Source: an uncultured Desulfospira sp.
Lineage (GTDB): Bacteria > Desulfobacterota > Desulfobacteria > Desulfobacterales > Desulfobacteraceae
DNA: 64,000 nt
Direction: 5' to 3'
NCBI GenBank assembly: GCA_963663165.1
Contig: OY760175.1
Coordinates: forward strand, 3,800,153 to 3,864,152
Under the pieces are notes generated by a model, which saw only the letters and a list, made by a program, of their open reading frames with translations, had not been told where the DNA came from and searched no databases. This document shows, in pieces, positions 40,075-64,000 of this stretch. Each line of letters opens with the position of its first letter. Position 1 is the stretch's first letter. The position numbers and the translations under genes were made by a program.

Positions 40075-41385
40075 TCACAACGCATGCTCAGGAAGCCATA
40101 TCACGATGTCCGGGAAGAGCAGCATCAGGATAATTACCGACACGTCAATGATGATAAAGGGCAGCGTGGCCTTATAAATGGTCGCCATGGTGATGTTTTC
40201 CGGCACCACGCCTTTCATGACAAAGAGCAGGAATCCGAACGGCGGGCTTTCCATGGCCACTTCCAGGTTCACCAGCATGATCAGGGCGAACCAGATTTCA
40301 TTGAATCCCAGGGCCTGGACCATGGGCATGAAGATGGGCAGGGTGATGAGCATGATGGAAACCTGCTCCATAAACATGCCAAGGATAAGGATGACCCCCT
40401 GCATGGCGATCATCAGTACCAGGGGCGGCAGGGGAAGTGAGGTAACAACTTCCACCATGCTCGAGGTGGCGCCGGAGTATGCCAGGATCTGGCTGAAGGC
40501 CAGGGAGCCGGTGACGATCAAAAACATCATCACCGTGATTTTCATTGTCCCGGCAAGGGATTTCTTGACCAGGTCCATGTTGAGCCGCCCATAGCAGGCA
40601 GACAGGATAAAGGTGGACAGGGCACCCATGGCGGCAGATTCCGTCGGAGTGGCAATGCCAAGGAAAATCAGGCCGATGACCGAAAAAATAACCACACTTA
40701 ACGGCAGGATGTACTTAACTGTCACCCGCATCTTTTCTTTAAAGGAAACCGGCTCCGGTGTGTAGGAAGGCGCCATCTCGGGCTGAATGATACACCGGCC
40801 GACAATGTAGCCAATATAAAGGACCGCCAGCAGCAGTCCGGGCATGATCCCGCCGATGAGCATCTTGCCAACGGACACATTGGCTATGGCCGCCAGAATA
40901 ACGGCTAGGGCACTGGGCGGTATGATCATGGCCAGGGCCCCGCACATGCAGGAGCCAATGGAAATACAGGGATGATACCCGCGTTTTTCCATATCCGGAA
41001 TCATGATGGACCCCAGCATGGCCGTGGTCCCGATACTGGACCCGCTCAAACAGGAAAACATGGTGCCCGATGCCAGGGCCAGCACCCCCAGACGTCCGGG
41101 CACCCGGCCCAGCCATTTATCCACAACGTCTATGGCCTTTAAGGCCAGCTGCGAGTGAAACAGCACCTCCCCCATGATGACAAACAGCGGCACCGGCAGC
41201 AGGGAAAAGGTCGACACTGAACTGAAGATACTGTCGGCTAGCTGATAAAATCCGACTACCCCGTCCCAGTAAAAATAGGCCCCGACCAGATTGACCACCA
41301 GAAAGCAGAACGCCACAGGCATGCCCGTAACCAGCAATAACATTAGCCCGCCGATAATCAGCGTTAACGCAGTATACCATTCCAT
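40075..41385 (-). CDS. dctM: TRAP transporter large permease (DctM)
   Basis: Start at the ATG at 41385 (MEWYTALTLIIGG...), adjacent to the dctQ stop. 436 aa, clearly paralogous to 22778-24085. Confidence 0.9.
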   Translation of the reverse strand: MEWYTALTLIIGGLMLLLVTGMPVAFCFLVVNLVGAYFYWDGVVGFYQLADSIFSSVSTFSLLPVPLFVIMGEVLFHSQLALKAIDVVDKWLGRVPGRLGVLALASGTMFSCLSGSSIGTTAMLGSIMIPDMEKRGYHPCISIGSCMCGALAMIIPPSALAVILAAIANVSVGKMLIGGIMPGLLLAVLYIGYIVGRCIIQPEMAPSYTPEPVSFKEKMRVTVKYILPLSVVIFSVIGLIFLGIATPTESAAMGALSTFILSACYGRLNMDLVKKSLAGTMKITVMMFLIVTGSLAFSQILAYSGATSSMVEVVTSLPLPPLVLMIAMQGVILILGMFMEQVSIMLITLPIFMPMVQALGFNEIWFALIMLVNLEVAMESPPFGFLLFVMKGVVPENITMATIYKATLPFIIIDVSVIILMLLFPDIVIWLPEHAL

Positions 41386-41386
41386 A

Positions 41387-41950
41387 TCACATAGCCTCCG
41401 TTTCTGATGATGAGAAGGAAGTCCCCTGTTCGTCCTCGTCTGATTGACCATGCTTTGAGCCCCACAGCTCGTTATAAAACTGCCGGAAGGCTTCAATGCA
41501 AAGGAAAAAACTGCCAAAGGGAATCACCCAGACCACCGACCATTTCGGAAGGGTCAGCATTTTGATCATAACGATATCACGCTGGAACAAATCCCATGTG
41601 GCGCCGCAGGTTGAAAGAAAGAGAACCAAAATGGCAATGGCCGCCACAAAAGATGCAAATATTTTGAATTTGCGGGTGATATGGGTAGGGCAAAAGAAAA
41701 ACAGGATATCCACATTAACATGCCCTTTTTCCCTTAAAAGCCAAGGACTTCCCAGAAAGGTAAGATAAACCAGCAGATACTCACACACCTCCATGGCCCA
41801 TCCTGTGGGATTACGAAAAAGGTAGCGCATTACAACATCATAACAAATTAAAAGCATCATAAAGAGTAATATGGCACCGGACACAACGGCCATTGCGTTG
41901 AGTATGCCATCGAACCATCGTCCGGACCTGTTCAGCAGTGTCGTCATCAT
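41387..41950 (-). CDS. dctQ: TRAP transporter small permease (DctQ)
   Basis: 187 aa with 4 TM helices. The position and the CYDVVMRYLFRNP motif parallel 22289-22777. Confidence 0.85.
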   Translation of the reverse strand: MMTTLLNRSGRWFDGILNAMAVVSGAILLFMMLLICYDVVMRYLFRNPTGWAMEVCEYLLVYLTFLGSPWLLREKGHVNVDILFFFCPTHITRKFKIFASFVAAIAILVLFLSTCGATWDLFQRDIVMIKMLTLPKWSVVWVIPFGSFFLCIEAFRQFYNELWGSKHGQSDEDEQGTSFSSSETEAM

Positions 41951-42075
41951 TACCTTCCATTTTCTTTCTTGTTGGGGGATATTCCGGCTGCCTCGCTTAG
42001 GGGTTGCCTAAAGGGACCGGCAGCCGGAGCTTAAACCTTACTTAACGTTTACTTATTTGCTTATTGTTAACTTCC

Positions 42076-43098
42076 TTATTTCTTCAATGGTTTTGAAATC
42101 AATTCTTTGAGCTTGGCGCCGCCCTCAGGGGCTTCTTTAATCACCGTGGCCCAGGTTTCATCATAGGCCATGTTGCTGTATACTTCAGCTTCTTCAGGTG
42201 ACAGATGAACTTCCTGAACACCGGCCGCCTTCATAATTTCCCAGGCATGTTCCTTTTCACGCAGAACCCGGACCGTATCCACCCCCTCAAAGACTTCCAC
42301 ACAATGTTCAAGTATTTCCTGAAGGTCTTTGGGCAGGCTGTTATACTTGGTCAGGTTGACGAGCAAAGCGTTTTCCAGCTGGAACACGCCGGGCAAAATT
42401 TTATACTTGGTCACCTCGTGCCATCCCCAGTCGGGAATCTCAAAATCCGAGGTCCACATATACCCGTCCACAACGCCCCGCTGCATGGCCGTGTAAACAT
42501 CCGTGGGCGGAATGATGATGGGCTTGGCACCCAATTTTTTGATAAACGGGATGTAAAGGGGCATGGCCCGGATTTTCAGGCCTTTGAAATCCTCAAGTTT
42601 TTCTACTTTCTTAGAGGTGTAGATGTTAAAGTCAATAACGGACTGAATGGTGCCGATGTACTTTGCATTGATCTTTTCCTGACAAATTTTATCCCAGATG
42701 TCATGGACCCCTGTCAGCCGTTCCTCCCAGGCCGCCAGCCGGGAAAGGCCTTTTGCCTGAAGTTCGGGCGCAAAGGCTTTAAGATAAGCAAAGGGCGTAT
42801 GCAGAATCATGTCGATGGTGCCCCGCCGGACCGCCTCGCCCTGGTCAAATGACTTGACCACTTCCGGACCGCCCACATAATTGATTTTCAACCGTCCGTC
42901 GGACTGTTTTTCAATCATCTTGATCAGATCGGGCAGGGCCCGGTTGACCATGGCGGTTTTGGGAAAGGCCGTCACCGCCTTGAGCGTAATTGTGTCTGAG
43001 GCCATAGAAGCCCCCGGTGCGGACAACATCGCACCCATTACCATTAGAAGAGCTGCAGCAGGAAGCCAAATCCAGGAATTTCTCATTTTCATGTCCAT
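42076..43098 (-). CDS. dctP: TRAP transporter substrate-binding protein (DctP family)
   Basis: 340 aa with a signal peptide. The ATG at 43092 is better spaced from the AAGGAG RBS. Close paralog of 53406-54419. Confidence 0.88.
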   Translation of the reverse strand: MDMKMRNSWIWLPAAALLMVMGAMLSAPGASMASDTITLKAVTAFPKTAMVNRALPDLIKMIEKQSDGRLKINYVGGPEVVKSFDQGEAVRRGTIDMILHTPFAYLKAFAPELQAKGLSRLAAWEERLTGVHDIWDKICQEKINAKYIGTIQSVIDFNIYTSKKVEKLEDFKGLKIRAMPLYIPFIKKLGAKPIIIPPTDVYTAMQRGVVDGYMWTSDFEIPDWGWHEVTKYKILPGVFQLENALLVNLTKYNSLPKDLQEILEHCVEVFEGVDTVRVLREKEHAWEIMKAAGVQEVHLSPEEAEVYSNMAYDETWATVIKEAPEGGAKLKELISKPLKK

Positions 43099-43342: not shown

Positions 43343-44176
43343 TTACTTGGCCAATACAATGGTTCCCATGTTTCTATCAACATCGGTTTTGATATCAATG
43401 GTCTGGGTTTTATAGCCGTCATATTCAACATTGATCTGAAATGTTTTGCCGGCTTCAAGGCCCTTAAATTCAAAATCACCCAGAAAATCCGTTGTGCTGG
43501 TCATTTCGGTGCCGTCGCCTTTAAGGGTTACCTTAACCCCCTGGCTGCAAACATCCTGCTGATCTTCAAGCAGGACTTCGCCCATGACCACCCGCTTGGG
43601 AACATTCCGGTAAACCACGTTGGAATGCAATCCAAATGCGGGATTCAGTTGCTCGGTGGGGGCCGATGCAATGTCCTTTGAAAGCGCGCTGTTGGGATCA
43701 TCAAGGTCACCAAACAAGATGGCGCCGCTCGGACATGCCTCAGCGCATCTGGGCTCTTTTGCGCCCTTTTCGAGTAAATGGACACAAAAGCTGCATTTCT
43801 GGGGAACATCCAGAACCGCATTCCAGGAAATGGCCCGGTAGGGGCAATAGGTCATGATGTCTCTGTTGCCTTTTGCCTTTTCAGGGTCAATCACGACGAT
43901 ACCGTCATCCCGGCGGTAAACCTCTCCGTCTACGGCCTTGGCCACACAAGGAGCATCCTTACACTGAAGGCATGGCATGGCAATGTAATCCACCTTAACC
44001 TTGGGGCAGGTTCCCATTTCTTTTTCCGTGACCTTCATAAAGGGTTTGCTGTCATGGGGAATGGCTAACGAAAAGGGCGGATAATCGTTTCCGGAATATT
44101 CGTCCTTGCATGCCAGAAAGCAATTATAGCAGCCATTGCATTTGTTTACATCTATTCTCATTCCATATTTGGCCAT
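43343..44176 (-). CDS. Transhydroxylase-like Mo enzyme, FeS beta subunit 1 (BthL-like)
   Basis: ATG at 44176 (RBS GGAGGG inside the alpha 3' end) gives MAKYGMRIDVNKCNGCYNCFLACKDE... Three ferredoxin Cys groups. C-terminal TDFLGDFEFKGLEAG beta-sandwich tail. Confidence 0.85.
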   Translation of the reverse strand: MAKYGMRIDVNKCNGCYNCFLACKDEYSGNDYPPFSLAIPHDSKPFMKVTEKEMGTCPKVKVDYIAMPCLQCKDAPCVAKAVDGEVYRRDDGIVVIDPEKAKGNRDIMTYCPYRAISWNAVLDVPQKCSFCVHLLEKGAKEPRCAEACPSGAILFGDLDDPNSALSKDIASAPTEQLNPAFGLHSNVVYRNVPKRVVMGEVLLEDQQDVCSQGVKVTLKGDGTEMTSTTDFLGDFEFKGLEAGKTFQINVEYDGYKTQTIDIKTDVDRNMGTIVLAK

Positions 44177-44180: not shown

Positions 44181-46697
44181 TTAACCCTCCCATTTTCCAA
44201 TTTCAATCAGACAGGTATTTGGTGTCATCCCCGGTACATTCTGGGACATCATGGTGGATGATGTAAGGATATTGACACATCCGCCCCTGTCTACCGAGTC
44301 TGCTTTGCCGGGTTCCAACGGATCATAATTGGCGGCTGATCCATAGCTGTGAACCACCCCTTCGGGAACCCTTTCGGTAATCACTGCGGCACACAGAACC
44401 GTGCCCCGGTCATTGTAGAGTTTAACGATATCTTCCTGCCGAATTCCGCGTTTGGCGGCATCGGCCGGGTTGATCCTCACCGGCCAGTAGGCATAGCCGT
44501 CCTTTTTGATCCGGTGGGTGGGGATATCATTGAGCCAGTCCGTGTGTTTATCATACATGGTATGGAAACTGAACCGCGGATGGGGGCTGATGATCTGAAG
44601 CGGGTATTTTTCCCGGATGGGGCTCTTATGACCTTCCCAGCTTTCAATGTAATGGGGCACAACAGGCCTTTCCTGGTCATCGGGAAGATTTGCTTTAAGG
44701 CTCTGAGAGGCAAATTCAAACTTTCCGCTGTAGGTACTCAGCTCATTGGCTTTGTCTGTTCCCCGTTTGGGATTCATGGAATCCGGGGTATCGCAGGCGC
44801 GGCCTTCATTGAACCAGCGCAATGCCGGGGTCGCCTTGTAATCATCGGACGGGCTGATAATAATGTAGCCTTTTTTATCAAACTCTTCCCAGCTCATGAT
44901 TTTGGGCAGGTCTGAAATTTCATAATAGGCCTTGGCCCAGTCCATGGTCGTTCTGCCACCGTCGGTATAAAGGTCCTTTTTACCCAGTTTTTCAGAAAGC
45001 GCCGTAAAAATTTCATAGTCAGGCCTTGACTCCCACAGGGGCTCAATGGCTTTTTGCTGGCGGACAATGATCCGGTAGTTGCACCCATTGTTGCCATGGT
45101 TGCTGTAGCCGCCGGCGGCGGCCCATTCTGCCCAGTCATCTCTTTCAAGGGCCGTACAGGCCGGAAAGATGATGTCGGCAAACTTGGTTTCACTGCAGTA
45201 CCAGCAATCCTGGTTAACCACGAATTCCAGGTTCGGGCTCTGGTACATCTTTACCCATTTGCTGGTATCGCTCATGGTCCCGATGAAGCTACCGCCGTAT
45301 CTGTAGAACATCTTTATGTCGGAATACCCTTCCAGGGGATAGGTGAATTTCTGGAACTGCATTTCAAGGTTCTGACCGCAGAAACCGGCACCGGTCCAGG
45401 CATCTTTCTTATTTATAATGGCATCGGGAAGGGTCAGTCTGTAAAGGCGCTGCTTGGTGGGGTTGGTGATCTTGGTCCGGGCGGCTCTGGTAATGGCCAT
45501 CCGGGTGTCGAGATCCGCATATCCGGGAACATAAAAAGAGGTGTCGGCCGGACAGCCCATGGTGGTTCCCCAAATGGAGGTACCGGGTTTGCCAAGTCCC
45601 TGCATGGCTTGAAGAAGAACCATCAGTCTGGCCCACTCCGTTCCGAAAGCAGTTCGGCACGCCCCGCCTTCACCGCCCCTGGTACCGGCGGAAAGGATGG
45701 TCTTTTTGGCAGCCCACTCTTTGGCCAGGGACCGAATCTTTCTGGCGGGAATTCCGGACTCTTCTGAAGCCCACTCAGGGGTTTTGGCCTGGCCGTCTTC
45801 TTTTCCGGTGACGTATTCTTTGAACTCGTCAAACCCCACGGTCCTGTTTTCAACAAAGTCCTTGTCATAGGTATCGTCTTCAATCCAGGTGTAGGCGATG
45901 GCCAGGGCAACCGCGGCGTTTGAATCCGGGTTGGGGGGCAGCCAGGTGCCGTCCATATGAGCTGCGGTATAGTTGAAGTAAGGATCAAGGAAAACCATTT
46001 TAACGCCTTTTTCCTTGAGCCACTGCCGCCAGATAACAGAATCCTGGCCGCAGTAAATGGCATGGGTCGTATCCGGGTCATTGGACCAGAAAACGATCAT
46101 CTCAGCATTCTGCATGGCATCTTCAAGAAGGTCATACTGCTCGGGCATGCCCAGGCGCCAGAAAAATCCCCAGGCATGGGTGGCACCCCAGTGCCAGCCT
46201 TCCCAGGAGTCCGGGTTGTCCAGTACCGGCGTAAATTCCAGCATGTCCATGAAGCGGGGGAAGGGTCCCATTTTATAGCCGACAATACCCCAGTTATGGT
46301 GGGATGATGTGATGCCGGTAATGGCAGATCCGCCGTATTCGCCCTGGATTCTCTTGATCTCATTGGCCGTAATATCCAGCGCCTCTTCCCAGCTGATCCG
46401 TTCGTAGCCGGACTTGCCCCTGTTCTGGGGATTTCTCTCCCCATTGGGATCAAAATCCACTCGTTTCATGGGGTATTTAATTCTGTCAGCGGAATACAGG
46501 CGGGTCCTTTCGGCATGGACAAAAGGCGCCAGGTTTGCCTTTAACGGCGGGCTGTATTTTTTTCCATCGGCCTCAATTGTCCAGGGTTTAAAATCCTCTT
46601 CCTGCATAATCAAAGGCTGAACCCTGGTAACTTTTCCGTCGGTTACCGTTACTGATATTGGCCCTTCATTTGTGCAGCTTGAATAGACTTTTTCCAT
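44181..46697 (-). CDS. Pyrogallol-phloroglucinol transhydroxylase-like Mo enzyme, alpha subunit 1 (AthL-like)
   Basis: 838 aa with no N-terminal Cys cluster and no RR leader. Shows RIKYPMKRVDFDPNGERNPQNRGKSGYERISWEEALD, GITSSHHNWG, DNPDSWEGWHWG and RLGMPEQYDLLEDAMQNAEMIVFWSNDP, as I recall for AthL. Confidence 0.85.
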   Translation of the reverse strand: MEKVYSSCTNEGPISVTVTDGKVTRVQPLIMQEEDFKPWTIEADGKKYSPPLKANLAPFVHAERTRLYSADRIKYPMKRVDFDPNGERNPQNRGKSGYERISWEEALDITANEIKRIQGEYGGSAITGITSSHHNWGIVGYKMGPFPRFMDMLEFTPVLDNPDSWEGWHWGATHAWGFFWRLGMPEQYDLLEDAMQNAEMIVFWSNDPDTTHAIYCGQDSVIWRQWLKEKGVKMVFLDPYFNYTAAHMDGTWLPPNPDSNAAVALAIAYTWIEDDTYDKDFVENRTVGFDEFKEYVTGKEDGQAKTPEWASEESGIPARKIRSLAKEWAAKKTILSAGTRGGEGGACRTAFGTEWARLMVLLQAMQGLGKPGTSIWGTTMGCPADTSFYVPGYADLDTRMAITRAARTKITNPTKQRLYRLTLPDAIINKKDAWTGAGFCGQNLEMQFQKFTYPLEGYSDIKMFYRYGGSFIGTMSDTSKWVKMYQSPNLEFVVNQDCWYCSETKFADIIFPACTALERDDWAEWAAAGGYSNHGNNGCNYRIIVRQQKAIEPLWESRPDYEIFTALSEKLGKKDLYTDGGRTTMDWAKAYYEISDLPKIMSWEEFDKKGYIIISPSDDYKATPALRWFNEGRACDTPDSMNPKRGTDKANELSTYSGKFEFASQSLKANLPDDQERPVVPHYIESWEGHKSPIREKYPLQIISPHPRFSFHTMYDKHTDWLNDIPTHRIKKDGYAYWPVRINPADAAKRGIRQEDIVKLYNDRGTVLCAAVITERVPEGVVHSYGSAANYDPLEPGKADSVDRGGCVNILTSSTMMSQNVPGMTPNTCLIEIGKWEG

Positions 46698-47213: not shown

Positions 47214-48206
47214 ATGAAACTCAACAAAACCGACTTTCTGTTGATCAAGGCACTTCAAAAAAACGGCAGCGCCAGCTATTCGGATCTTGCCGGGGAACTG
47301 GGCATTACCGCCAAAACCGTTGCCAAAAAAACCGACCGGCTGCTGAAGAACAAAGTGATCTCCATCATTGCGCGACCCAACCCATACAGGCTCGGGCTTT
47401 TGGAAAGCGCCTTCATTGCCCTGAAAACCAACTTGTTAAAAAACGGGGAAATCTGCCGCTATCTGTCGGATAACTTTAATGTCAACCTGGTCCAGACCGT
47501 GTTCGGCAGCTATGACATCATAGCCGTTGTCTATTTTCAAGACCTGCAGCAGCTTCACAAGTTCATTGATGAAGAACTGTATACCCTGGACGGGGTCATC
47601 AAGGTGAAGACCTATTTCATTAAAGACACCTATAAACGGTACGATCGTTTTTTTGAAAAAGAATCCTTTTCCCAGGAGCCCGTTAAGATGAAAGAGACGG
47701 ACTGGGAGCTTGTCAAAACCCTGTCCTGTGACGCCCGGGCCAACCCGGCCCATTTGGCGGAGGCTTTCGGGATTCACTTATCCACGGTCTACCGGCGCAT
47801 TGAAACCCTGCAGAAAACCGGGGCCATCAGTATCAGTGCCGTGCCCAACCCGTCGCGCCTGACCCCCCATTCATCCAATGCCTTTGTTATTTTAGAAACC
47901 CCTCCCCAGGAGGTGACGCTGCTCTTTAAAAAGCTGCGGGATTGCCCTGAAGTCCATTTTCTGATGACCACCAACACCCACTCCGGCCTGATCGCCTGCA
48001 TCCACTCAAGGGACAATGCCTCGCTGTTTCAATTCATCCAGCAGTATATCTCATCTCCCAACGGGCTTCTCAATGCGGATGTCTTTATCCGGGCCATGGT
48101 CCATAAAACTTATTACAACTGGTTTAAGGATGATGCTGTCCCGGTGGACGGTGAAAAAACTGTGGAACTGGTAGATTCGGGCCTTGAATTGTCAAAAGGG
48201 CTTTAA
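47214..48206 (+). CDS. Tandem (duplicated) Lrp/AsnC-family transcriptional regulator, paralog 2
   Basis: 330 aa, colinear with 14434-15351. Shared blocks include LIKALQKNGSASYSDLAGELGITAKTV, YKRYDRFFEKE and LAEAFGIHLSTVYRRIETL. Confidence 0.8.
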   Translation: MKLNKTDFLLIKALQKNGSASYSDLAGELGITAKTVAKKTDRLLKNKVISIIARPNPYRLGLLESAFIALKTNLLKNGEICRYLSDNFNVNLVQTVFGSYDIIAVVYFQDLQQLHKFIDEELYTLDGVIKVKTYFIKDTYKRYDRFFEKESFSQEPVKMKETDWELVKTLSCDARANPAHLAEAFGIHLSTVYRRIETLQKTGAISISAVPNPSRLTPHSSNAFVILETPPQEVTLLFKKLRDCPEVHFLMTTNTHSGLIACIHSRDNASLFQFIQQYISSPNGLLNADVFIRAMVHKTYYNWFKDDAVPVDGEKTVELVDSGLELSKGL

Positions 48207-54901: not shown

Positions 54902-55087
54902 AAATAGAACTAGAACTGCCCGGGTATTTGCCCTGGGAGACCATTTTAACAACAGATGAGCATTGGGTTGACGGCCGGATTCAATTGACCAGGCAGTAAG
55001 CAAACCTTAAGGTTAAAGATACCGGCCCGTCATCGTCCATGTTTTAAAGACGACTGGAAAAAAATTATTTGACGAAAATTAACATTG

Positions 55088-55170: not shown

Positions 55171-55262
55171 ACCGGGTATGCGCGCTGCCCATGAAACGGG
55201 TTGATTGGAACCCAAACGGTGAACGGAACCCCCAAAACAGGGGGAAAAACAAATATGAATGA
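55171..55262 (+). pseudogene. Decayed alpha-subunit fragment B
   Basis: MKRVDWNPNGERNPQNRGKNKYE* is joined directly to the leader motif. In the intact gene at 61194 this block lies about 280 nt into the CDS. Confidence 0.7.
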
Positions 55263-55341
55263 ATCAGTTAGGCAAAAGCTGCAAAAATCGCATTAAATGA
55301 GATTGACCGCTTTACGCCTGGGTTGTGGGAGGTGACAAATT

Positions 55342-56219: not shown

Positions 56220-58820
56220 ATGGCAACAATAAAAACCAAAGATAAAACAGTTCTCAGGAGTCTCGGATTAGGTGGTTTTTTCGGGGGCGGTGCCGAAGGG
56301 ATGGTGGATGTTAAAAACGGCAAGATCGTCCGCGTTCGCCCCATGAGATACGGCTGGAAATACAAAGAAGACGATGTCCGGCAGTGGACCATTACCAAAG
56401 ACGGCAAATCCATTGGGCCCGGCTGGAAAAGCCTTCCCGGCCCCTTTTCCCTGGCTTACAAAAAACGGGTTTATTCCCCCAACCGGATCCTGTTCCCCCT
56501 AAAACGGGTGGACTGGGACCCCAACGGCGAACGCAACACCCAGAACCGGGGAAAAAGCAAATATAAACGGATTTCCTGGGATGAGGCCTCAGATCTGATT
56601 GCATCTGAAATCAAACGAATTCATAAAAAATACGGGGTCCACGCCATCCTGATGCAGGGTGACGGCCATGGCGAGTGCAAGTCTATTAACACCCCCCACG
56701 GCCATCCGGGAAACCTTCTGGACCACATGGGCGGGTTTACCCTTCAGGTCCGTAACCCGGACTCCTGGGAGGGCTGGTACTGGGGGGCCAAACATGTCTG
56801 GGGCCACGGGGTCCAGGGCAACATGTGGCCGGCCGCCAATACGGTAAAAGACTGTACCGAACACTCTGAAATGGTCCTGTTCTGGGGATGTGATCCCGAG
56901 ACCACGCCCTGGGGCTTTGCCGGACAGTTTGCCAGCCGGCTGTGCTATTTCTGGGAACAACTGGGAATCAAACAGGTCTATATCTGCCCGGACTTAAACT
57001 ATGGGGCTGCGGTTCATGCGGACAAGTGGATCCCCATCCTTCCCAATACGGACGCGGCCCTGCAACTGGCCATTGCCCATGTCTGGATCACTGAAAATCT
57101 TTATGACAAGGCTTATGTGGACACCCATGTGGTGGGCATGCAGGAATTTGCCGAGTATGTTCTGGGCGAAGAGGACGGCATTGAAAAAACACCGGAATGG
57201 GCATCCAGAAAATGCGGCATCCCGGAATGGACCATCAAAGCCTTAGCCCGGGAATTTGCCCGGAAGATTACCTCTATTGCCCATTATTTCGGCGGCGGAC
57301 TCATCAGGGGACCCTTTTCCCATGAAAACGCCCGTCTTGAGGTGGTTCTGCTGAGCATGCAGGGCCTTGGCGGCCCCGGGGTTCACCAGCTTCAGTTCAC
57401 CTATTTTGGCATGCCCAGAAAAGAGAACCTGGCCGGCGGTATCTGGAATCCGGATATTGAAGAACGGCTCTCCATCCCGGTCATGTCATCCATCAGCTCC
57501 TGGCAGAAACAGGCGCTTCCCAAATGCCTGGTCCATAAGGCCATCCAGGCTGAAGGGCCTATTACCTTCTGCGGGACCGGGGCCATTGAGGGGTTGACCC
57601 GGGACCAGTTCAACGAATACACCTTTCCCATCCCCAAAGAAGAAGAAGGCAGTGAGATCCACATGATGTGGACCGACACCCCCTGCCGGATCACCTGCTG
57701 GAACGGCGGCAATGAGACCGAGGTGGCGTTACGTAACCCTAAGGTTGAAACCATTGTGGCCCAGCACCCCTGGCTTGAAAATGACTGCCTCTACGCGGAC
57801 ATTATCCTGCCGTCCAACACCTCCTTTGAAGTGGATGACATTGTCACCAACGTGCGCCAGGGAACGCCCCAGCCCAATATCATGATCCAGGACAAGGCCA
57901 TTGAGCCCATCGGGGAATCCAAGAGTGACTTTGAGGTGGTGGTTGAAGTGGCCAAGAAAGTCGGCCTGGAAAAAGAGATGACCCAGGAACTGACCATTGC
58001 CGATCTGCAAAAGCGGATCTGGCATCACATGGGCGGCGAAAAGCTGCTTCCCTGGGAGCAGTTGGAAGAAAAGAAGTACTGGATGTACAATACCGCCAAA
58101 GACTGGGAAAATGATCCTCCGGGGCTGCGGCAGTTTTATGAAGACCCGGAACGGCATCGCCTGGGCACCCCCAGCGGCAAACTCGAATTTTATTCCGAGT
58201 CCCTGGCTGCCCGGTTTCCCGATGACCAGGAAAGACCGCCCATCCCCAAATGGATCGAAAAAAGCACCATGCACGACGAGCGCCTTTCCAGCAACCGCTC
58301 CAAAGTCTACCCCCTGCTGCTCATGTCCAACCACGGCCGCTGGCGGGTTCACTCCCAGTGCGACGACATTACCTGGACCAGGGAAGTGGGCACCTGCAAG
58401 GTTACCGGACCGGACGGGTACAAATACGAACCCTTATGGATGCACACCTCTGAAGCGGCAAAACGCGGCATAAAGAACGGGGACATCGTCAAAATCTTTA
58501 ATGAACGGGGAATTGTTCTGGCCGGCGCCTTTGTCACGGAACGCTTACGTCCCGGTGTTGTCTATATTGACCACGGTGCCCGTGCCGACGCCATCAAGGT
58601 CGGGGAAATTGACCGGGGCGGTGCCATCAACACCATATCCCCTGACGGCATCATCTCAAAGAACTGTGTGGGCCAGGCCACCAGCGGTTATCTGGTTCAG
58701 ATCGAGAAGCTCAGCGGGCATGAGATGGAACAATGGCGCAATGATTACCCGGATGCCTTTGAAAGGAAATATGATCCAGCCGCAGGTCTCAGGTTTGACG
58801 CATGGGTTGTAAAAGACTAA
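56220..58820 (+). CDS. Transhydroxylase-family Mo enzyme, alpha subunit 3 (divergent subgroup)
   Basis: 866 aa. Shows YSPNRILFPLKRVDWDPNGERNTQNRGKSKYKRISWDEASD, QGDGHGECK and RNPDSWEGWYWG. Colinear with alpha 2 and alpha 4. Confidence 0.85.
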   Translation: MATIKTKDKTVLRSLGLGGFFGGGAEGMVDVKNGKIVRVRPMRYGWKYKEDDVRQWTITKDGKSIGPGWKSLPGPFSLAYKKRVYSPNRILFPLKRVDWDPNGERNTQNRGKSKYKRISWDEASDLIASEIKRIHKKYGVHAILMQGDGHGECKSINTPHGHPGNLLDHMGGFTLQVRNPDSWEGWYWGAKHVWGHGVQGNMWPAANTVKDCTEHSEMVLFWGCDPETTPWGFAGQFASRLCYFWEQLGIKQVYICPDLNYGAAVHADKWIPILPNTDAALQLAIAHVWITENLYDKAYVDTHVVGMQEFAEYVLGEEDGIEKTPEWASRKCGIPEWTIKALAREFARKITSIAHYFGGGLIRGPFSHENARLEVVLLSMQGLGGPGVHQLQFTYFGMPRKENLAGGIWNPDIEERLSIPVMSSISSWQKQALPKCLVHKAIQAEGPITFCGTGAIEGLTRDQFNEYTFPIPKEEEGSEIHMMWTDTPCRITCWNGGNETEVALRNPKVETIVAQHPWLENDCLYADIILPSNTSFEVDDIVTNVRQGTPQPNIMIQDKAIEPIGESKSDFEVVVEVAKKVGLEKEMTQELTIADLQKRIWHHMGGEKLLPWEQLEEKKYWMYNTAKDWENDPPGLRQFYEDPERHRLGTPSGKLEFYSESLAARFPDDQERPPIPKWIEKSTMHDERLSSNRSKVYPLLLMSNHGRWRVHSQCDDITWTREVGTCKVTGPDGYKYEPLWMHTSEAAKRGIKNGDIVKIFNERGIVLAGAFVTERLRPGVVYIDHGARADAIKVGEIDRGGAINTISPDGIISKNCVGQATSGYLVQIEKLSGHEMEQWRNDYPDAFERKYDPAAGLRFDAWVVKD

Positions 58821-58874: not shown

Positions 58875-59696
58875 ATGGCCATTATAACAATTACAAAAGC
58901 CTCATACAGCAGCGGTGAACAAATTGCCGAACGTCTCTCCAAACGGTTAAAATACCCCTGGATGGGAAGACGGGAACTGTTTGCCCGTGCGTCTGAAGAT
59001 TTTCATTTTCCTGAAAAAGACCTGGTCGAGGCCGTGGAAGAACCGGCCAAGATCTGGCAGCAGGACCGTGAAAAGCAGGCGGCCAACTACAATTTAATCC
59101 GGGCAACCTTTCTCAAACGGTGCAGCGAAGAAAAAGGGAATCTCGTTTACCACGGCCATGCCGGCCCGGAATTTGTCAGACGGATTCCCCATGCCTTGCG
59201 GATACTGGTGGTCGGAGAAATGGAATACCGGATTGAACAGGCCATGAAAATAGACGGCCTGGACCGGGACAAGGCGATTGAAACCATTCACAAAAACGAC
59301 AAACGGGTCACCAAATGGTCCCAGCAGATGCATACCGTCAACTGGCGGGATTTCTCCTGGTACGATATGGTCTTTCACCTTGGCCGCCTGAGCGCCGAAA
59401 GCGCGGAAGAAGCGGTGGTTGGCATCATCGAATCCGGCGGGTTTAACATTACGGAAGAGTCTAAAAAAGCCTTTTATGATGAATATCTGGGCAGCGTTGT
59501 CTGGACCAAGCTGACCAATAATGATGAGACCAGCAGCGCCGTTATTGAGACCATTGCCGAACATGGCCGGGTTACCATTTCAGGGGTGGCGCGCTCTAAA
59601 GAGCAAAAAGAGGCCATCACGGCTTTGACCGCTTCCATCGAAGGGGTTGAAAGTGTGCAGAACAACGTCGGCATCGGCGCCATCTGGCGCTCCTAA
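58875..59696 (+). CDS. Cytidylate-kinase-like (P-loop-like) domain fused to a BON domain
   Basis: 273 aa. The N-terminal MAIITITKASYSSGEQIAERLSKRL resembles the cytidylate kinase-like family. The C-terminal GRVTISGVARSKEQKEAITALTASIEGVESVQNNV is BON-like. Confidence 0.55.
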   Translation: MAIITITKASYSSGEQIAERLSKRLKYPWMGRRELFARASEDFHFPEKDLVEAVEEPAKIWQQDREKQAANYNLIRATFLKRCSEEKGNLVYHGHAGPEFVRRIPHALRILVVGEMEYRIEQAMKIDGLDRDKAIETIHKNDKRVTKWSQQMHTVNWRDFSWYDMVFHLGRLSAESAEEAVVGIIESGGFNITEESKKAFYDEYLGSVVWTKLTNNDETSSAVIETIAEHGRVTISGVARSKEQKEAITALTASIEGVESVQNNVGIGAIWRS

Positions 59697-59876
59697 GCAA
59701 AAAGCGTTAAGGCCTTTCCTAAAAAAGAGGCCGGACATGAATTGTGCCGGTATCTTAACGGTGCTGGATGGATCTGTTTTTTAAACCATGAAGAACAAGG
59801 AGAGCATGAAGCAACAAATACTTCATGCTCTTCATGTTCCGGGTAAATATTTTGACTCATGAATTTGGAGATAAGT

Positions 59877-60395
59877 ATGATAAAACCCATTCAATCGATT
59901 CTTTTTGCCACAAATTTGAACAAAACCTGTATCCCGGCTCTTGAAATGGCCGCCGCCATGGCCACCCGGCATCAGGCCACCCTGGTGCTGATGCACGTGG
60001 TGGAACAGATGCCCGAATACATTGAAACCCGCCTCAAAGGGCTGTTCGGCGAACAGGAGTATGAGGATATGGTTCAAAAAAAATCCAATACCGCCCGTGC
60101 GGCCCTGATCGGCAAAATCTCTGCTTCCGGCCTTGTCCGGGAGGCCCTTGAACAATTTTGCGCCAATGCCGGCATAGATGATGATGCCTGTGATTACCAG
60201 GCCAGGGAAATTGTGGTGACCGGGGGCAATCTGGTGGAAGAAATCATTGCCACCTCAAAAAAATACGATTGCGGTTTCATTGTCATGGGGGCAAGAGAAG
60301 GGTTCCTTACCGACAATTCCATCGGCCATACCATCAAATCGGTCATGCGCCGGTCTAAAATTCCGGTAATGATGGTCCCCCCGCCCCAGGAATAA
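59877..60395 (+). CDS. Universal stress protein (UspA family)
   Basis: ATG at 59877 after GGAG. IQSILFATNL...ATLVLMHVV...CGFIVMGAREG...IGHTIKSVMRRSKIPVMMV is the USP pattern. Confidence 0.75.
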   Translation: MIKPIQSILFATNLNKTCIPALEMAAAMATRHQATLVLMHVVEQMPEYIETRLKGLFGEQEYEDMVQKKSNTARAALIGKISASGLVREALEQFCANAGIDDDACDYQAREIVVTGGNLVEEIIATSKKYDCGFIVMGAREGFLTDNSIGHTIKSVMRRSKIPVMMVPPPQE

Positions 60396-60413: not shown

Positions 60414-61061
60414 ATGGGGATGGATAAAATTAAATTAGATACCGTTTTATCCCGGGTTGGGAGGTTAAAGGAATATGCCAGAAATCAGATCATTTATCGG
60501 CAGATGGAAGAACCTTCCGGACTCTTTTTTATCAAAAAGGGCAAGGTCAGAAATTATATTGTCACTGAAGACGGAAAAGAGAAGACCTGTACCATATCCA
60601 TTGAGGGGGAATTTTTCGGGCTGGCCTATTTTTTCGATGACGGATTAAACGATACATCGGCCCATGCCATGGAAAAGTCCCAGATTTATACCATCGGCCA
60701 TGACGGGATGGAGCATATCTATCGCCATGAGCATGATGTGGTGGTACAGATCCTCAAATCAATGGCCCAGAAAATGCGGTTCCTCTCTTTTCAGATGACC
60801 AGCCTGGCCTTCCTGTCTGCTGACCGGAAAATTGCACAAATGCTGGTTCACCTTGCCGAGCGGTTCCATCCCCCAGAGCCGGACCCGTTCCCGATTACCA
60901 TCAACTGTACCCATGAAGATATCGCCCTGCTGTCCAGCACCTCCCGGACAACGGTTACCCAGGTGCTCAACGACCTGGAAAAAAGGCATCTGGTTTCAAA
61001 AGGATACCGGTCTGTCATTATCCATGATCTGGAAACCATGAAACGCATTATTTTTGAATAA
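60414..61061 (+). CDS. Crp/Fnr-family transcriptional regulator
   Basis: 215 aa with a cNMP-binding-like beta-roll (LFFIKKGKVRNYIVTEDGKEKT...GEFFG). C-terminal HTH (THEDIALLSSTSRTTVTQVLNDLEKRHLV). Confidence 0.8.
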   Translation: MGMDKIKLDTVLSRVGRLKEYARNQIIYRQMEEPSGLFFIKKGKVRNYIVTEDGKEKTCTISIEGEFFGLAYFFDDGLNDTSAHAMEKSQIYTIGHDGMEHIYRHEHDVVVQILKSMAQKMRFLSFQMTSLAFLSADRKIAQMLVHLAERFHPPEPDPFPITINCTHEDIALLSSTSRTTVTQVLNDLEKRHLVSKGYRSVIIHDLETMKRIIFE

Positions 61062-61193: not shown

Positions 61194-63779
61194 ATGCCCA
61201 GTCAAGACAAAGAGCACGAGATTGAGAAATCAATATTCAGAGGGCTTGGCTTTTGTTCAATCACCGCAGATGCCAACAGTGTCCAGGTGGACTGCAACAA
61301 AGGCAAAATCATCCGAATACGCCCCCTTCGCTATGATTTAAAATACCCGGACATCACCCCATGGGAAATCAAAGCAAAGGGAAAGAGTTTTTCCCCGTTG
61401 AAAAAATCACTGATTCCCCCCTACAGCCTGGGATACAAGAACCGGGTATATTCCCCCAACCGGGTTCTGTTCCCCATGAAACGGGTGGACTGGGACCCCA
61501 ATGGCAACCGCAATCCCCAGAACAGGGGAAAAAGCAAATACGAGCGGATCAGCTGGGAAGACGCCATTGAGATCATGTACAACGAAATCAACCGGGTAAA
61601 AGAAACCCACGGTATGGAGGCGATCCTGTCCCAGTCCGACGGCCACGGGGAAACCAAATGCGTCCACTCGGCCCATGGCTGCCACAGACGGTTGTTAAGC
61701 CTTCTGGGCGGATACACCCTCCAGACCCGGAATACCGACTCCTGGGAAGGCTGGGTATGGGGCGCCAAACATGTCTGGGGCTGTGAGAACTTAGGCGAAA
61801 TGGTACCGGTCAACAACGTTATCGAGGATGTGGCCAACAATTGTGACGCGGTCTTCTACTGGGGCTGCGACCCTGAGACCACCCCCTGGGGCTTTGACGG
61901 ACAGCTGGCCAGCCGCATCTGCTACTGGTTTACCGAAGTGGGTGTTAAATCCCTTTATGTGTGTCCGGACCTGAACTACGGGGCAGCGGTTCATTCAGAC
62001 AAGTGGGTTCCCATCTACCCCAACACCGACGCCGCCCTTTACCTTGCCATCGCTTACATGTGGATGATTGAAGGCACTTACAACAAAGAATATATCAAGA
62101 CCCACGCCGTGGGATTTGACAAGTTTGAAGAATATGTCCTGGGCAAAGAAGACGGGATTGCCAAAACCCCCAAATGGGCCGCTGAAATTACCGGCATTCC
62201 CTCTTACACCATCAAGGCTTTGGCCCGGTACTGGGGAAAGAAAACCGTGTCCATTGCCATTGGCAACGGCGGCCCGGGCATCCGGGGACCCTATGCCACG
62301 GAACCTGCCCGGCTCCAGGTGCTGCTGCTGGCCATGCAGGGTCTTGGCGGCCCCGGGGTTCACCAGTTCAAAATGATCGAATGGGGCATTTACAATAAAA
62401 AGCACAATATCCCGTTGCCCCCGCCGTCCAAATATATCCCCGTACTTTTGGACGCCAACCGGGGATGGAAGTATCAGGATACCCCCCGGCAGTTTATTCC
62501 CAAAAACCGGATCCACGACGCCATCCTGAACCCGCCCATCACCTGGTACGGCACAGGCCTGTCTCGGGACAGTGTAGAACAGCAGTTCATCCCCTACAAA
62601 TATCCCCTTGACGATGCCCCGGAAGTTCACATGATCTGGACTGACTCCCCCTCATGGATGAGCTGCTGGAACGATACCAACATGCTGGTCAAAGCATTTA
62701 GAAGTGAAAAAATTGAATTTATTGTGGCCCAGCATCCATGGATTGAAAACGACTGCCAGCTGGCCGACCTGATCCTGCCCTCGGCCACGGTCATGGAAGT
62801 TAAAGACATTGGTGTGGAAACTATGAGCGGCCAGTTCTCCTGCGTCTTTTATGAAGACCAGGCCATCCGTCTGCGGGGAGAATCCAAAAGCGATTATGAA
62901 ATCGTCTGCGCCATTGCCGAGCGGTTCGGCATCCTGGATGAATACACCCAGGGCAAAAGCGTGGATGAATGGATTGAACGCGGCCATGAGACCTCAGGGG
63001 CCGGCGATGAAATCACTTTTGAAGAGCTCAAGGAAAAAGGCTACTACGTGGTTCCGCCCGACACCAGCGAACGGGGAACCAAGGCCGGAAAGTACGAATT
63101 CTATGAAGACCCGGAAAAATATCCCCTGTCAACGCCGTCGGGAAAAATCGAGTTTTACTCAGAACGGCTGGCCACCCATTTCCCCGATGACAACGAACGT
63201 CCGCCGGTGCCCCGGTATATTGCCTCAGGCGAATCCCATCAGGAAGACCGCTTAGGGCCCCGGGGAAAAGCGTATCCGCTGCTGGTGGTCTCCAACCACC
63301 CCAAATGGCGGGTCCACTCCCAGCATGACGACATGACCTGGCTTAGAGAAATCCATACCTGCAAGGTTAAAGGTCCGGACGGCTACCAGTACGAACCGGC
63401 CTGGCTCCACCCGGTGGAAGCTGAAAAAAGAGGCATCAAAGACGGCGATGTTGTGATCATCCGCAATGAGCGCGGTAGTGTCATGGCCGGTGCCTGGGTT
63501 ACCGAACGGCTGCGGCCGGATGTGGTTTACATTGACCATGGCGCCCGCTGGGATCCCATTGTCCCGGGCGAACTTGACCGGGGCGGTGCCATCAACACCA
63601 TCACCCCCCATAACGTGACCTCAAAACATGCCGGCGGCATGGTGAGCAGCGGCTTTCTGGTTGAGGTGGAAAAAGCCGACTTGGATGAGCTGCGCAAGCA
63701 ATATCCGGAAAGCTTTAACCAACCCTACCATGACGGGGCAGGACTGCACTCACAGCGCATTATCAATGGAGGAGAGTAA
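61194..63779 (+). CDS. Transhydroxylase-family Mo enzyme, alpha subunit 4 (divergent subgroup)
   Basis: 861 aa. Shows YSPNRVLFPMKRVDWDPNGNRNPQNRGKSKYERISWEDAIE, QSDGHGETKC and RNTDSWEGWVWG. RBS AGGAG. Confidence 0.85.
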   Translation: MPSQDKEHEIEKSIFRGLGFCSITADANSVQVDCNKGKIIRIRPLRYDLKYPDITPWEIKAKGKSFSPLKKSLIPPYSLGYKNRVYSPNRVLFPMKRVDWDPNGNRNPQNRGKSKYERISWEDAIEIMYNEINRVKETHGMEAILSQSDGHGETKCVHSAHGCHRRLLSLLGGYTLQTRNTDSWEGWVWGAKHVWGCENLGEMVPVNNVIEDVANNCDAVFYWGCDPETTPWGFDGQLASRICYWFTEVGVKSLYVCPDLNYGAAVHSDKWVPIYPNTDAALYLAIAYMWMIEGTYNKEYIKTHAVGFDKFEEYVLGKEDGIAKTPKWAAEITGIPSYTIKALARYWGKKTVSIAIGNGGPGIRGPYATEPARLQVLLLAMQGLGGPGVHQFKMIEWGIYNKKHNIPLPPPSKYIPVLLDANRGWKYQDTPRQFIPKNRIHDAILNPPITWYGTGLSRDSVEQQFIPYKYPLDDAPEVHMIWTDSPSWMSCWNDTNMLVKAFRSEKIEFIVAQHPWIENDCQLADLILPSATVMEVKDIGVETMSGQFSCVFYEDQAIRLRGESKSDYEIVCAIAERFGILDEYTQGKSVDEWIERGHETSGAGDEITFEELKEKGYYVVPPDTSERGTKAGKYEFYEDPEKYPLSTPSGKIEFYSERLATHFPDDNERPPVPRYIASGESHQEDRLGPRGKAYPLLVVSNHPKWRVHSQHDDMTWLREIHTCKVKGPDGYQYEPAWLHPVEAEKRGIKDGDVVIIRNERGSVMAGAWVTERLRPDVVYIDHGARWDPIVPGELDRGGAINTITPHNVTSKHAGGMVSSGFLVEVEKADLDELRKQYPESFNQPYHDGAGLHSQRIINGGE

Positions 63780-63781
63780 CT

Positions 63782-64000
63782 ATGGCGAAAGTATTAATCT
63801 TTGATGTAAATAAGTGCAACGGCTGTCATAACTGCCAGATCGCCTGCAAGGATGAACACTGCGGCAATGACTGGCAGCCCATAGCCGCCCCGCAACCGCT
63901 GACCGGCCAGTTCTGGTGTAAAATCCATGATAAGGTAAGGGGCCAGGTGCCCAAGGTCAAAGTGGCCTATACCCTGAACATCTGCCGGCATTGCGACGAT
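63782..64000 (+). CDS. FeS beta subunit 4 (5' part only, runs off window)
   Basis: Own translation: MAKVLIFDVNKCNGCHNCQIACKDEHCGNDWQPIAAPQPLTGQFWCKIHDKVRGQVPKVKVAYTLNICRHCDD. The ATG lies 2 nt after the alpha 4 stop. Confidence 0.8.
   Translation, partial: MAKVLIFDVNKCNGCHNCQIACKDEHCGNDWQPIAAPQPLTGQFWCKIHDKVRGQVPKVKVAYTLNICRHCDD

Follow-up and report, generated by a model that had tools for sequence, protein, structure and literature searches.

An array of four alpha-beta gene pairs

We analysed a 64,000-nucleotide stretch of DNA from an uncultured Desulfospira species (contig OY760175.1, positions 3,800,153 to 3,864,152; "the window" throughout), in which the part from position 40,075 onwards carries an array of genes for molybdenum enzymes resembling AthL/BthL, the pyrogallol transhydroxylase of Pelobacter acidigallici. 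An initial annotation of this DNA had described four intact pairs of a large (alpha) and a small (beta) subunit gene and one decayed pair, together with dedicated uptake and regulatory genes. Open reading frame (ORF) listing and translation bore out the coordinates and lengths of the four alpha genes: alpha1 (44181..46697, minus strand) encodes 838 amino acids (aa), while alpha2 (48481..51123), alpha3 (56220..58820) and alpha4 (61194..63779), all on the plus strand, encode 880, 866 and 861 aa, respectively. Their partners are beta1 (43343..44176, minus strand; 277 aa from the ATG), beta2 (51126..51947, plus strand; 273 aa), beta3 (55342..56163, plus strand; 273 aa) and beta4 on the plus strand. 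Three of these beta ORFs, which had been put at about 273-277 aa, are complete in the window, but the fourth is cut by the window end, with its first 73 codons at 63782..64000; on the source contig (L001, 12589-13413) beta4 is complete and encodes 274 aa. A 273-aa ORF at 58875-59696 was considered as the fourth beta gene and rejected because its Pfam matches are Cytidylate_kin2 and BON.

The alpha gene precedes the beta gene in pairs 1, 2 and 4, and the order is reversed in pair 3, where beta3 comes first and is separated from alpha3 by a 56-nt gap. In the orthologous pair of a Desulfobacter genome (locus L005; 79% and 75% identical to alpha3 and beta3, respectively), beta lies downstream of alpha.

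When the array was compared with a sister genome from the same sample (L089), the ratio of nonsynonymous to synonymous substitution rates (dN/dS) lay between 0.015 and 0.11 for alpha1-3, beta1-3, both solute-binding proteins, the transporter subunit DctM and the regulators, with alpha3 at 0.015. Because of these low ratios, the compared pairs and the transporter and regulator genes are under purifying selection.

Family assignment of the alpha subunits

Alignment of the four alphas confirmed two shared blocks, YP(M/L)KRVD(F/W)DP(N/K)G.RN(P/T)QNRGKS...RISW and N(P/T)DSWEGW. As had also been noted, residue counts and Pfam searches found neither an N-terminal Cys cluster nor a twin-arginine leader in any of them, with 0-2 Cys in the first 90 residues and no RR in the first 60. 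The N-terminus of each corresponds to the Pfam domain AhtL-like_1st, no match to Molybdop_Fe4S4 was obtained for alpha1-4, and PF21423 (pyrogallol hydroxytransferase large subunit-like domain 1) is matched at 34-56 bits against a threshold of 27. The Molybdopterin and Molydop_binding domains were above their gathering thresholds in all four, and the similarity of the array genes to their relatives is far beyond chance, with E-values of 0.

The comparison with solved structures and folds was run for alpha2, and alpha1, alpha3 and alpha4 were placed through sequence identity and phylogeny. By sequence, the best match of alpha2 in the PDB is the large subunit of AthL/BthL (4v4c_A; 431 bits, E 7e-128), followed by trimethylamine N-oxide (TMAO) reductase at 256 bits. 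An AlphaFold model of alpha2 (mean predicted local distance difference test score, pLDDT, 85.6) likewise returned 4v4c_A as its top Foldseek match, with a template modelling (TM) score of 0.83, ahead of dimethyl sulfoxide (DMSO) and TMAO reductases at 0.74-0.76. In NCBIfam, alpha1-4 pass no family; the best scores, 349-366 bits, fall on TIGR00509 (bisC_fam), for which the cut-off is 1017.55, and the proteins are far below the TorA and DmsA cut-offs. They match acetylene hydratase weakly. On the strength of PF21423, the best solved structure and the rooted tree described below, we assign all four alphas to the pyrogallol transhydroxylase (AthL/BthL) family, in agreement with the earlier proposal.

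The alpha1-type and alpha2-type groups are both large, conserved and generically named. Searches with an alpha1-type and with an alpha2-type query each gave more than 5600 matches at E 1e-20 under generic names only, and Desulfobacterota, Firmicutes, Chloroflexota, Acidobacteria and Actinomycetota have orthologs at 65-84% identity. When a betaproteobacterial alpha1-type protein was used as the query, no match was named as resorcinol hydroxylase (RhL) or 3,5-dihydroxybenzoate hydroxylase (DbhL), the matches of at least 68% identity being called "molybdopterin-dependent oxidoreductase".

Two clades with different active-site residues

To place the four paralogs, a neighbour-joining tree was built from 138 alphas, comprising 80 relatives from species-representative genomes, database homologs and a transcribed AthL sequence, with Escherichia coli TorA and BisC as outgroups and 93 bootstrap replicates; RhL and DbhL were left out of the tree, and the underlying family alignment holds 136 sequences. 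The family was monophyletic with respect to TorA and BisC in 93/93 bootstraps and divided into two clades, each recovered in 93/93: clade I, which combines AthL-type and alpha1-type sequences, and clade II, which includes alpha2-4. The AthL-type group (24 sequences, 93/93) contains proteins from Holophaga foetida (86% identical to AthL) and Desulfosporosinus fructosivorans (63%) and excludes alpha1-4, while the alpha1-type group was found in 79/93 replicates. Since the AthL-type group leaves alpha1 outside in every replicate, alpha1 is placed as a sister lineage of the AthL orthologs and not as an AthL ortholog itself, and alpha2-4 are placed on a separate deep branch of the family. Pairwise identities follow the same division: alpha2-4 are 49-59% identical to one another (alpha3 to alpha2, 59%; alpha4 to alpha2 and alpha3, 49-52%) and 35-38% identical to alpha1 and AthL, and the betas mirror this pattern.

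The tree and the database scores bear directly on the idea that the pairs, or at least those of clade II, are cytoplasmic S- or N-oxide reductases acting on DMSO, TMAO or methionine or biotin sulfoxide, with electrons delivered through beta. TMAO and DMSO reductases and MtsZ are the runner-up matches in both sequence and fold, a ferredoxin-like beta with four predicted clusters (see below) would fit a reductase, and many homologs carry the JGI label "trimethylamine-N-oxide reductase"; that label, however, is automatic. Array alphas and DorA/TorA/BisC/MtsZ have the overall alpha fold in common and both lack an N-terminal iron-sulfur domain, and a Ser ligand to Mo is a further likeness according to the literature, but the array proteins reach only about one-third of the curated S/N-oxide reductase cut-offs and lie in a clade that split from E. 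coli TorA and BisC in all 93 bootstraps. No clustering with DMSO/TMAO or tetrathionate reductases, the outcome by which the initial annotation would have been refuted, was seen. In addition, the AhtL-like N-domain, the NPDSWEGW block (gapped in the aligned TorA and BisC) and the beta subunit with an immunoglobulin (Ig)-like tail are traits of the transhydroxylase family, and DorA/TorA/BisC/MtsZ-type reductases are not known to have an Ig-tailed iron-sulfur beta. TorA and DorA are periplasmic substrates of the twin-arginine translocation (Tat) pathway. We therefore regard an S- or N-oxide reductase function as improbable.

Residue patterns in the family alignment separate the two clades further. 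His144, the Asp174-Ser175-Trp-Glu-Gly core of the Mo-ligand motif NPDSWEGW and Arg359 are invariant in 136/136 members, and the leading N-P and final W of that block vary in a few (alpha4 has NT). The AthL-type and alpha1-type groups have H145, W147, Y152, R/K153, C358, Y404 and Y560 in common. Alpha1, which is 50% identical to AthL, retains H144, H145, W147, Y152, D174, S175, C358, Y404 and Y560 and differs from it by W354->E, H154->M and R153->K, the first two of these changes being found throughout the alpha1-type group. Clade II has G145, C/T147, A/T/S152 and P/A153, the loops that carry Y404 and Y560 are deleted or unalignable, and its alphas bear an extra C-terminal extension of about 35 residues. 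In AthL, Tyr152, Tyr404 and Tyr560, together with Arg153 and His144, reportedly line the pyrogallol and cosubstrate sites (Messerschmidt et al. 2004).

The match to the P. acidigallici enzyme that had been proposed for the whole array thus stands at the level of the family. All pairs resemble AthL/BthL (4v4c) in being cytoplasmic alpha/beta enzymes with a bis-molybdopterin guanine dinucleotide (bis-MGD) fold, an N-domain (PF21423) free of iron-sulfur clusters, the NPDSWEGW block and an Ig-tailed, ferredoxin-like beta, and alpha1/beta1 go further in keeping the shared pocket residues and a 12-Cys beta. The match does not extend to the pocket residues of alpha2-4 (35-37% identical to AthL) or the Cys content of beta2-4, and alpha1 falls outside the AthL ortholog clade. 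Their common family and domain architecture and the frequent public label "pyrogallol hydroxytransferase" might suggest that all four pairs duplicate one function, as isoenzymes of the classical pyrogallol-phloroglucinol transhydroxylase. This is very unlikely: the alphas are only 35-59% identical to one another, none lies inside the AthL ortholog clade (93/93), which includes the 86% identical Holophaga protein, Tyr152 and the loops with Tyr404 and Tyr560 are missing from clade II, whose betas also differ, and each paralog has orthologs of its own at 79-97% identity in other genomes.

Iron-sulfur ligands of the beta subunits

The beta subunits of the two clades differ in their Cys content. 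Beta1 has 12 Cys and three predicted [4Fe-4S] clusters; it is 37% identical to BthL and shows the same Cys pattern. Beta2, beta3 and beta4 each have 16 Cys in four full groups. The three ferredoxin Cys groups ascribed to all four betas therefore apply to beta1 and not to beta2-4. In beta1 and BthL, group II lacks its last Cys and group III its first three; these four Cys are absent in 59/59 betas paired with clade I alphas, and all 16 Cys are kept by beta2-4 and by 8/12 clade II partner betas elsewhere. With their 16 Cys, beta2-4 are predicted to hold four iron-sulfur clusters. Under the ligation scheme usual for four-cluster ferredoxin subunits, the cluster farthest from the Mo site is the one held by the four Cys in question.

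All four betas end in an Ig-like tail. The betas match Fer4_11 and a carboxypeptidase-regulatory-like Ig domain (CarboxypepD_reg), and the best solved match of beta2 is 4v4c_B (E 2e-52). The tail is matched by PF13620 in beta1-3 (below the gathering score in beta2) and, in beta4, through the full-length copy on the contig, and the betas align with BthL right up to the BthL end. The TDxxGDFxFxGL motif described for this region is present in beta1-3, but beta4 reads TDEFGDFMKDSL.

Since beta2-4 retain the four additional Cys, clade II appears to have kept a complete electron wire that was lost in the redox-neutral transhydroxylase, and because of this wire we propose net redox chemistry for alpha2-4.

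Genomic context

In Desulfobacterota, alpha1-type genes stand in a conserved run of alpha, beta, cupin, short-chain dehydrogenase/reductase (SDR), ATP-grasp/CoA ligase, enoyl-CoA hydratase (ECH), oligonucleotide/oligosaccharide-binding (OB)-fold protein and thiolase genes (L005, L008, L010, L011, L022 and L068), often with cyclase-family genes and a tripartite ATP-independent periplasmic (TRAP) transport system nearby. The Desulfobacter locus L005 places orthologs of both alpha3/beta3 and alpha1/beta1 beside two cyclases, a cupin and an SDR, in a cluster that also holds an ADP-forming CoA ligase, ECH, an OB-fold protein, thiolase and a TRAP system. Locus L090 reads Lrp regulator, SDR, CoA ligase, ECH, thiolase and cyclase, followed by an alpha2 ortholog (91% identical) with its beta, a universal stress protein (Usp) gene, an alpha4 ortholog (84%) with its beta and a 100-aa ORF. 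Across 80 clade I loci, an SDR was present in 21, a cupin in 13 and a cyclase in 10.

The window itself contains counterparts of these genes, outside the part from 40,075 onwards in which the array had been described. A gene for a cyclase-family protein (Pfam Cyclase, PF04199) lies at 13322..14209 on the minus strand, and an SDR gene (Pfam adh_short) at 16037..16804 on the plus strand encodes a candidate ring reductase. In L090, a 93% identical ortholog of the cyclase stands 130 nt 5' of the alpha2 ortholog, and the cyclase has further orthologs at 64-66% beside alpha1-type genes in L029, L036 and L038, and the SDR is 65%, 63% and 52% identical to those of the L090, L029 and L005 clusters. In L029, from Dehalococcoidales, a cyclase-SDR pair (64% and 63% identical to the window proteins) lies just 5' of an alpha1-type gene. 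On this conserved synteny, the window cyclase is probably the ring-opening hydrolase of the same system.

The region 13322-18140 of the window, with the cyclase gene on the minus strand, a tandem Lrp regulator, the SDR and a major facilitator superfamily (MFS) transporter, has a layout resembling that of the phloroglucinol cluster, with genes for phloroglucinol reductase (PGR), dihydrophloroglucinol cyclohydrolase (DPGC), a transporter and a regulator. PGR, an SDR, and DPGC, a cyclase-family hydrolase, catalyse the two opening steps of the characterised anaerobic phloroglucinol pathway (PMC10470551). The Clostridium scatologenes cluster (PGR, DPGC, TfD, TAL) is like the window and the orthologous clusters in its SDR and cyclase, transporter and regulator; unlike it, the window has no TAL or TfD homolog that we could see, and the Desulfobacterota clusters carry CoA ligase, ECH and thiolase. 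A CoA-dependent route has reportedly been described in P. acidigallici extracts, and the Desulfobacterota clusters are closer to that route.

Clade II was also examined in its own right, by a metagenome scan centred on this clade that gave 80 further loci. A clade II alpha lies within 10 kb of a clade I alpha in 13/79 genome loci and 12/80 metagenome loci. Of the same 80 metagenome loci, three have a cyclase and an SDR of the window type and one has genes of the alpha1-type operon (SDR, cupin, ATP-grasp, DctP). The link between the array and phenolic catabolism that had been suggested earlier gains support from conserved synteny with the SDR/cyclase/CoA-ligase/thiolase module and with Lrp-type regulators.

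Proposed functions

We consider it reasonably probable that the locus is part of a phenolic catabolic island of a sulfate reducer, in which two types of transhydroxylase-family enzyme feed a route of ring reduction and hydrolysis. Phenolic compounds, probably carboxylated, would be taken up, and several cytoplasmic Mo-bis-MGD/iron-sulfur heterodimers would rearrange, add or remove ring hydroxyls until the ring pattern could be reduced and hydrolysed. The products would then pass to an SDR ring reductase, a cyclase-family ring hydrolase and, finally, CoA activation and thiolysis. For alpha1/beta1, the most likely activity would be a transhydroxylation or hydroxylation other than the classical pyrogallol reaction, with a di- or trihydroxybenzene or a hydroxybenzoate as substrate. 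Alpha2-4/beta2-4 would most likely exchange electrons with an external partner and perform net redox chemistry (water-dependent hydroxylation or reductive dehydroxylation), each paralog acting on a different substrate. The observations concern the family to which the pairs belong, its clades, the patterns of residues and Cys, synteny and purifying selection; we infer from them the substrates, the redox direction and the link to the ring-cleavage module.

Related enzymes offer partial precedents. RhLS of Aromatoleum/Azoarcus anaerobium and DbhLS of Thauera aromatica AR-1 belong to the same RhL/PgtL family, in which Mo is coordinated by Ser, and hydroxylate phenolic rings; reviews name PgtL and RhL as the only characterised members (PMC10100899). 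In addition, the gut catechol dehydroxylases Dadh, Cldh and Hcdh are bis-MGD enzymes that edit ring hydroxyls (PMC7028382). These dehydroxylases and acetylene hydratase provide a functional analogy for a redox role of clade II, although they belong to another branch of the superfamily and have an N-terminal [4Fe-4S] domain. The pathways of RhLS and DbhLS continue oxidatively in denitrifiers, via hydroxyhydroquinone dehydrogenase. In contrast, the conserved SDR, cyclase, CoA ligase and thiolase neighbours of the array genes suggest a reductive, hydrolytic route. The DbhLS cluster also includes a TRAP transporter for a hydroxybenzoate, and a TRAP system likewise lies beside alpha1/beta1.

Several findings weigh against this interpretation of the locus. 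Literature searches turned up no characterised enzyme in clade II or in the alpha1-type group, and RhL and DbhL were not among the sequences of the tree. We saw no obvious electron partner for the four-cluster betas. In the window, the cyclase and SDR genes lie about 27 kb from alpha1; the SDR matches solved SDRs only in a generic way, neither the solved structures nor NCBIfam gave a relative of the cyclase, and their comparison with PGR and DPGC is by analogy only. For clade II, unbiased clustering of the neighbours of 82 loci recovered beta (57/82) as the sole recurrent partner, and most clade II genes elsewhere, for example in Firmicutes, form lone alpha-beta operons.

The last of these findings invite the alternative that the substrates of clade II pairs are non-aromatic, for example aliphatic or alicyclic acids with hydroxyl or oxo groups, and that the pairs stand only sometimes near aromatic-pathway genes. 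The lone Firmicutes operons have no aromatic genes near them, and the pocket residues common to AthL and alpha1 are replaced or deleted in clade II. Set against this, two independent samples of about 80 loci each have clade II together with clade I in 12-13 loci, and in L090 clade II genes lie directly inside an SDR/cyclase/thiolase cluster. After beta, the most frequent neighbours among the 82 loci are SDR (8), radical SAM (7), MFS (6), Pyr_redox_2-rhodanese (5), sigma-54 activators (5), IclR (5), Amidohydro_2 (4) and class II aldolase (4), and of these the occasional Amidohydro_2, IclR and sigma-54 genes are typical of aromatic catabolism; the Amidohydro_2 family holds hydroxybenzoate decarboxylases. 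We consider the non-aromatic alternative unlikely, although, since beta is the sole recurrent neighbour and the Firmicutes pairs stand alone, the phenolic assignment of clade II is plausible but not secure.

Within the phenolic island, a more specific proposal can be put forward tentatively, and with less confidence than the island as a whole: that alpha2-4/beta2-4 represent a distinct functional class, which lacks the tyrosines of AthL and alpha1, retains an ancestral fourth cluster and may carry out net redox hydroxyl editing of a kind new to the family. Ferredoxin-dependent reductive dehydroxylation and water-dependent hydroxylation would be examples of such reactions. Clade II is widespread: its sequences number several thousand and come from Desulfobacterota, Firmicutes, Chloroflexota, Actinomycetota and further groups.

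In anoxic sediments, peat and guts, polyphenols make up a large pool of carbon, and studies of this Mo family have, to our knowledge, been confined to three enzymes: pyrogallol transhydroxylase, resorcinol hydroxylase and 3,5-dihydroxybenzoate hydroxylase. The family divides into at least three well-populated groups (AthL-type, alpha1-type and clade II), and the contrast between three- and four-cluster betas and between the presence and absence of the tyrosine-bearing loops predicts that their chemistry differs. This cautions against blanket annotation as "pyrogallol hydroxytransferase" in metagenome studies, and the connection to SDR, cyclase, CoA ligase and thiolase genes offers concrete candidate pathways and organisms, such as relatives of Desulfobacter and Desulfobacterium. 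If the proposal for clade II is correct, its members would be candidates for the long-missing anaerobic hydroxyhydroquinone, gentisate or protocatechuate steps.

More distant family members encoded on Burkholderia and rhizobial megaplasmids adjoin genes of ring-cleavage type (vicinal oxygen chelate, VOC, and fumarylacetoacetate hydrolase, FAH, families). Nine rhizobial/Burkholderiaceae megaplasmids carry alpha relatives at 43-47% identity that, where annotated, are called only "molybdopterin-dependent oxidoreductase". One of these, on Burkholderia stagnalis plasmid NZ_CP156687.1 (L171, 11593-15454), has an annotated N-terminal extension of about 135 residues with no Tat motif, and its neighbours encode VOC-family, FAH-family, acyl-CoA synthetase, amidohydrolase, MFS and IclR proteins. 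Many representatives of 50%-identity clusters likewise have about 100 extra N-terminal residues.

Transport and regulatory genes

Pfam searches confirmed the remaining components that had been assigned to the array, namely a TRAP system (DctPQM), a second DctP, a double Lrp/AsnC regulator and a Crp-family regulator. The TRAP genes lie on the minus strand downstream of beta1: DctM (40075..41385; E 3e-74, dN/dS 0.037) has 436 aa from its ATG, as does its L089 ortholog, the listed ORF starting earlier at a TTG; DctQ (41387..41950; E 5e-24) is the small membrane subunit; and DctP1 (42076..43098) is the solute-binding protein. An orphan solute-binding protein, DctP2, is encoded on the plus strand at 53406..54419 (dN/dS 0.052). 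Both match Pfam DctP and exceed the NCBIfam TRAP_S1 cut-off, and they share 65% identity; a second TRAP system in the window (21103-24085) has a binding protein that is 45% identical to DctP1.

The nearest solved relative of DctP1 is the TRAP binding protein Bpro_4736 of Polaromonas (4mnc; E 1e-52), which was also the top Foldseek match of an AlphaFold model built from three sequences, a poor model with a pLDDT of 53.8. The ligand in 4mnc is reportedly benzoyl formate. Arg177 of the GLKIR motif is invariant in the three binding proteins of the window and may correspond to the carboxylate-clamping Arg147 of SiaP.

Divergent from alpha1 and upstream of alpha2 lies a tandem Lrp/AsnC regulator gene (47214..48206, plus strand), whose product has two HTH_AsnC/HTH_24 stretches and an AsnC_trans_reg domain. 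Its orthologs (52-62% identical) lie directly 5' of an alpha1-type gene in L008 and at the head of the L090 cluster. The second tandem Lrp/AsnC regulator recognised by Pfam (14434..15351, plus strand), between the cyclase and SDR genes, is 49% identical to the first and has a 62% ortholog upstream of the alpha1-type gene in L008. Because such orthologs stand directly 5' of alpha1-type or alpha2-type clusters in other genomes, these comparisons support a dedicated role of the tandem Lrp regulators in the control of alpha clusters. The Crp-family regulator (60414..61061, plus strand) has cNMP_binding and HTH_Crp_2 domains. A consensus promoter and terminator scan of 40000-59900 gave counts as in shuffled sequence (22 versus 20.2 and 24 versus 27.0) and hence no evidence on operons.

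Three further genes are interspersed with the pairs, all on the plus strand. A Usp gene (Pfam Usp) lies at 59859..60395, and a Usp gene also stands between the alpha2/beta2 and alpha4/beta4 orthologs of L090. The rejected beta candidate at 58875..59696 (Cytidylate_kin2, E 2e-30; dN/dS 0.065) encodes a cytidylate-kinase-like protein with a BON domain and follows alpha3 in L089 too. An ORF of 341-353 aa between beta2 and DctP2 (52202..53263) was called as a gene in both L001 and L089, where it is conserved, and has no Pfam or NCBIfam match; by eye, it contains HD-like motifs (HDSGK, NDADF) and a Cys-rich C-terminal stretch.

Remnants and history of the array

The decayed gene pair described in the initial annotation is present in so far as its alpha part is concerned: decayed alpha material survives in two fragments between DctP2 and beta3, whereas the beta part amounts to a weak tail match only. 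Remnant A (54625..54960, plus strand) consists of a frameshifted alpha fragment at 54625-54895, corresponding to residues ~62-150, and then the beta-tail match at 54850-54960 (E 0.006 by six-frame translation, tblastn). Remnant B (55185..55313, plus strand) is an alpha fragment corresponding to residues ~92-134 with in-frame stops and, by tblastn, 54-69% identity to alpha1-4. The alpha fragment upstream of beta3 is 69% identical to alpha4, 68% to alpha1 and 58% to alpha3.

Recent tandem duplication was considered as the origin of the array and rejected, as the paralogs are 35-59% identical and each has its own orthologs elsewhere. Gene order in the sister genome L089 is the same, down to the remnants, and nucleotide identity is 91-96%. 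The segment 28039-40039 of the window is absent from L089, where the ferredoxin/flavoprotein genes of a neighbouring cluster abut DctM directly. This 12-kb stretch contains type I restriction-modification genes (hsdR, a gene for a Schlafen/AlbA_2 protein, hsdM and an hsdS fragment) and genes for a small helix-turn-helix (HTH) protein and an MscS channel. From this comparison we take it to be an insertion (or, alternatively, a deletion in L089) that splits one catabolic island extending from about 13 kb to past the window end.

The four paralogs within 20 kb pointed out in the initial annotation are not unusual: two full-length alphas are present in 17/79 other loci, and the number of alphas per locus reaches three or four when partial copies are counted in the 79 genome loci. 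Multi-copy "pyrogallol hydroxytransferase" genes are also known from Dehalococcoidia single-cell genomes and Chloroflexi metagenome-assembled genomes, with a TRAP link suggested for Dehalococcoidia (PMC4959651), and in Desulfitobacterium hafniense DCB-2 pyrogallol hydroxytransferase is an annotation class among 53 molybdopterin oxidoreductases (PMC3306737). A multi-copy array as such is thus not new. What we did not find described is the clade split with its remodelled site and four-cluster beta, and the ties of both clades to the SDR/cyclase/CoA-ligase/thiolase module.

Beyond beta4, the source contig (L001, 13432-19521) carries a conserved 100-aa ORF, a gene for an HbpS/GlcG-like protein and, after these, transposase genes of DDE and IS21 type. 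The 100-aa ORF has no family match and is 54% identical to the ORF at the same position in L090, where it is followed instead by genes for an old yellow enzyme (OYE)-like flavoenzyme and an SDR. Judging from this arrangement, the array beyond beta4 may have been cut short by insertion sequences.

A second TRAP-linked molybdoenzyme cluster occupies 19123-28047 of the window. It comprises a PAS-LuxR regulator (19123-20799, minus strand), the second DctPQM system (21103-24085), a 717-aa Mo enzyme with an N-terminal Fe4S4 domain (24142-26295), a ferredoxin directly downstream of it (26298-26822) and, at its end, a Pyr_redox_2 flavoprotein (26695-28047). The best solved match of the 717-aa enzyme is acetylene hydratase (2e7z, 249 bits), closely followed by FdhF (241 bits). 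About 10 of 80 other loci have a full-length homolog at 30-36% identity next to AhtL-like genes. Among characterised enzymes, the nearest relative of the gut catechol dehydroxylases is acetylene hydratase.

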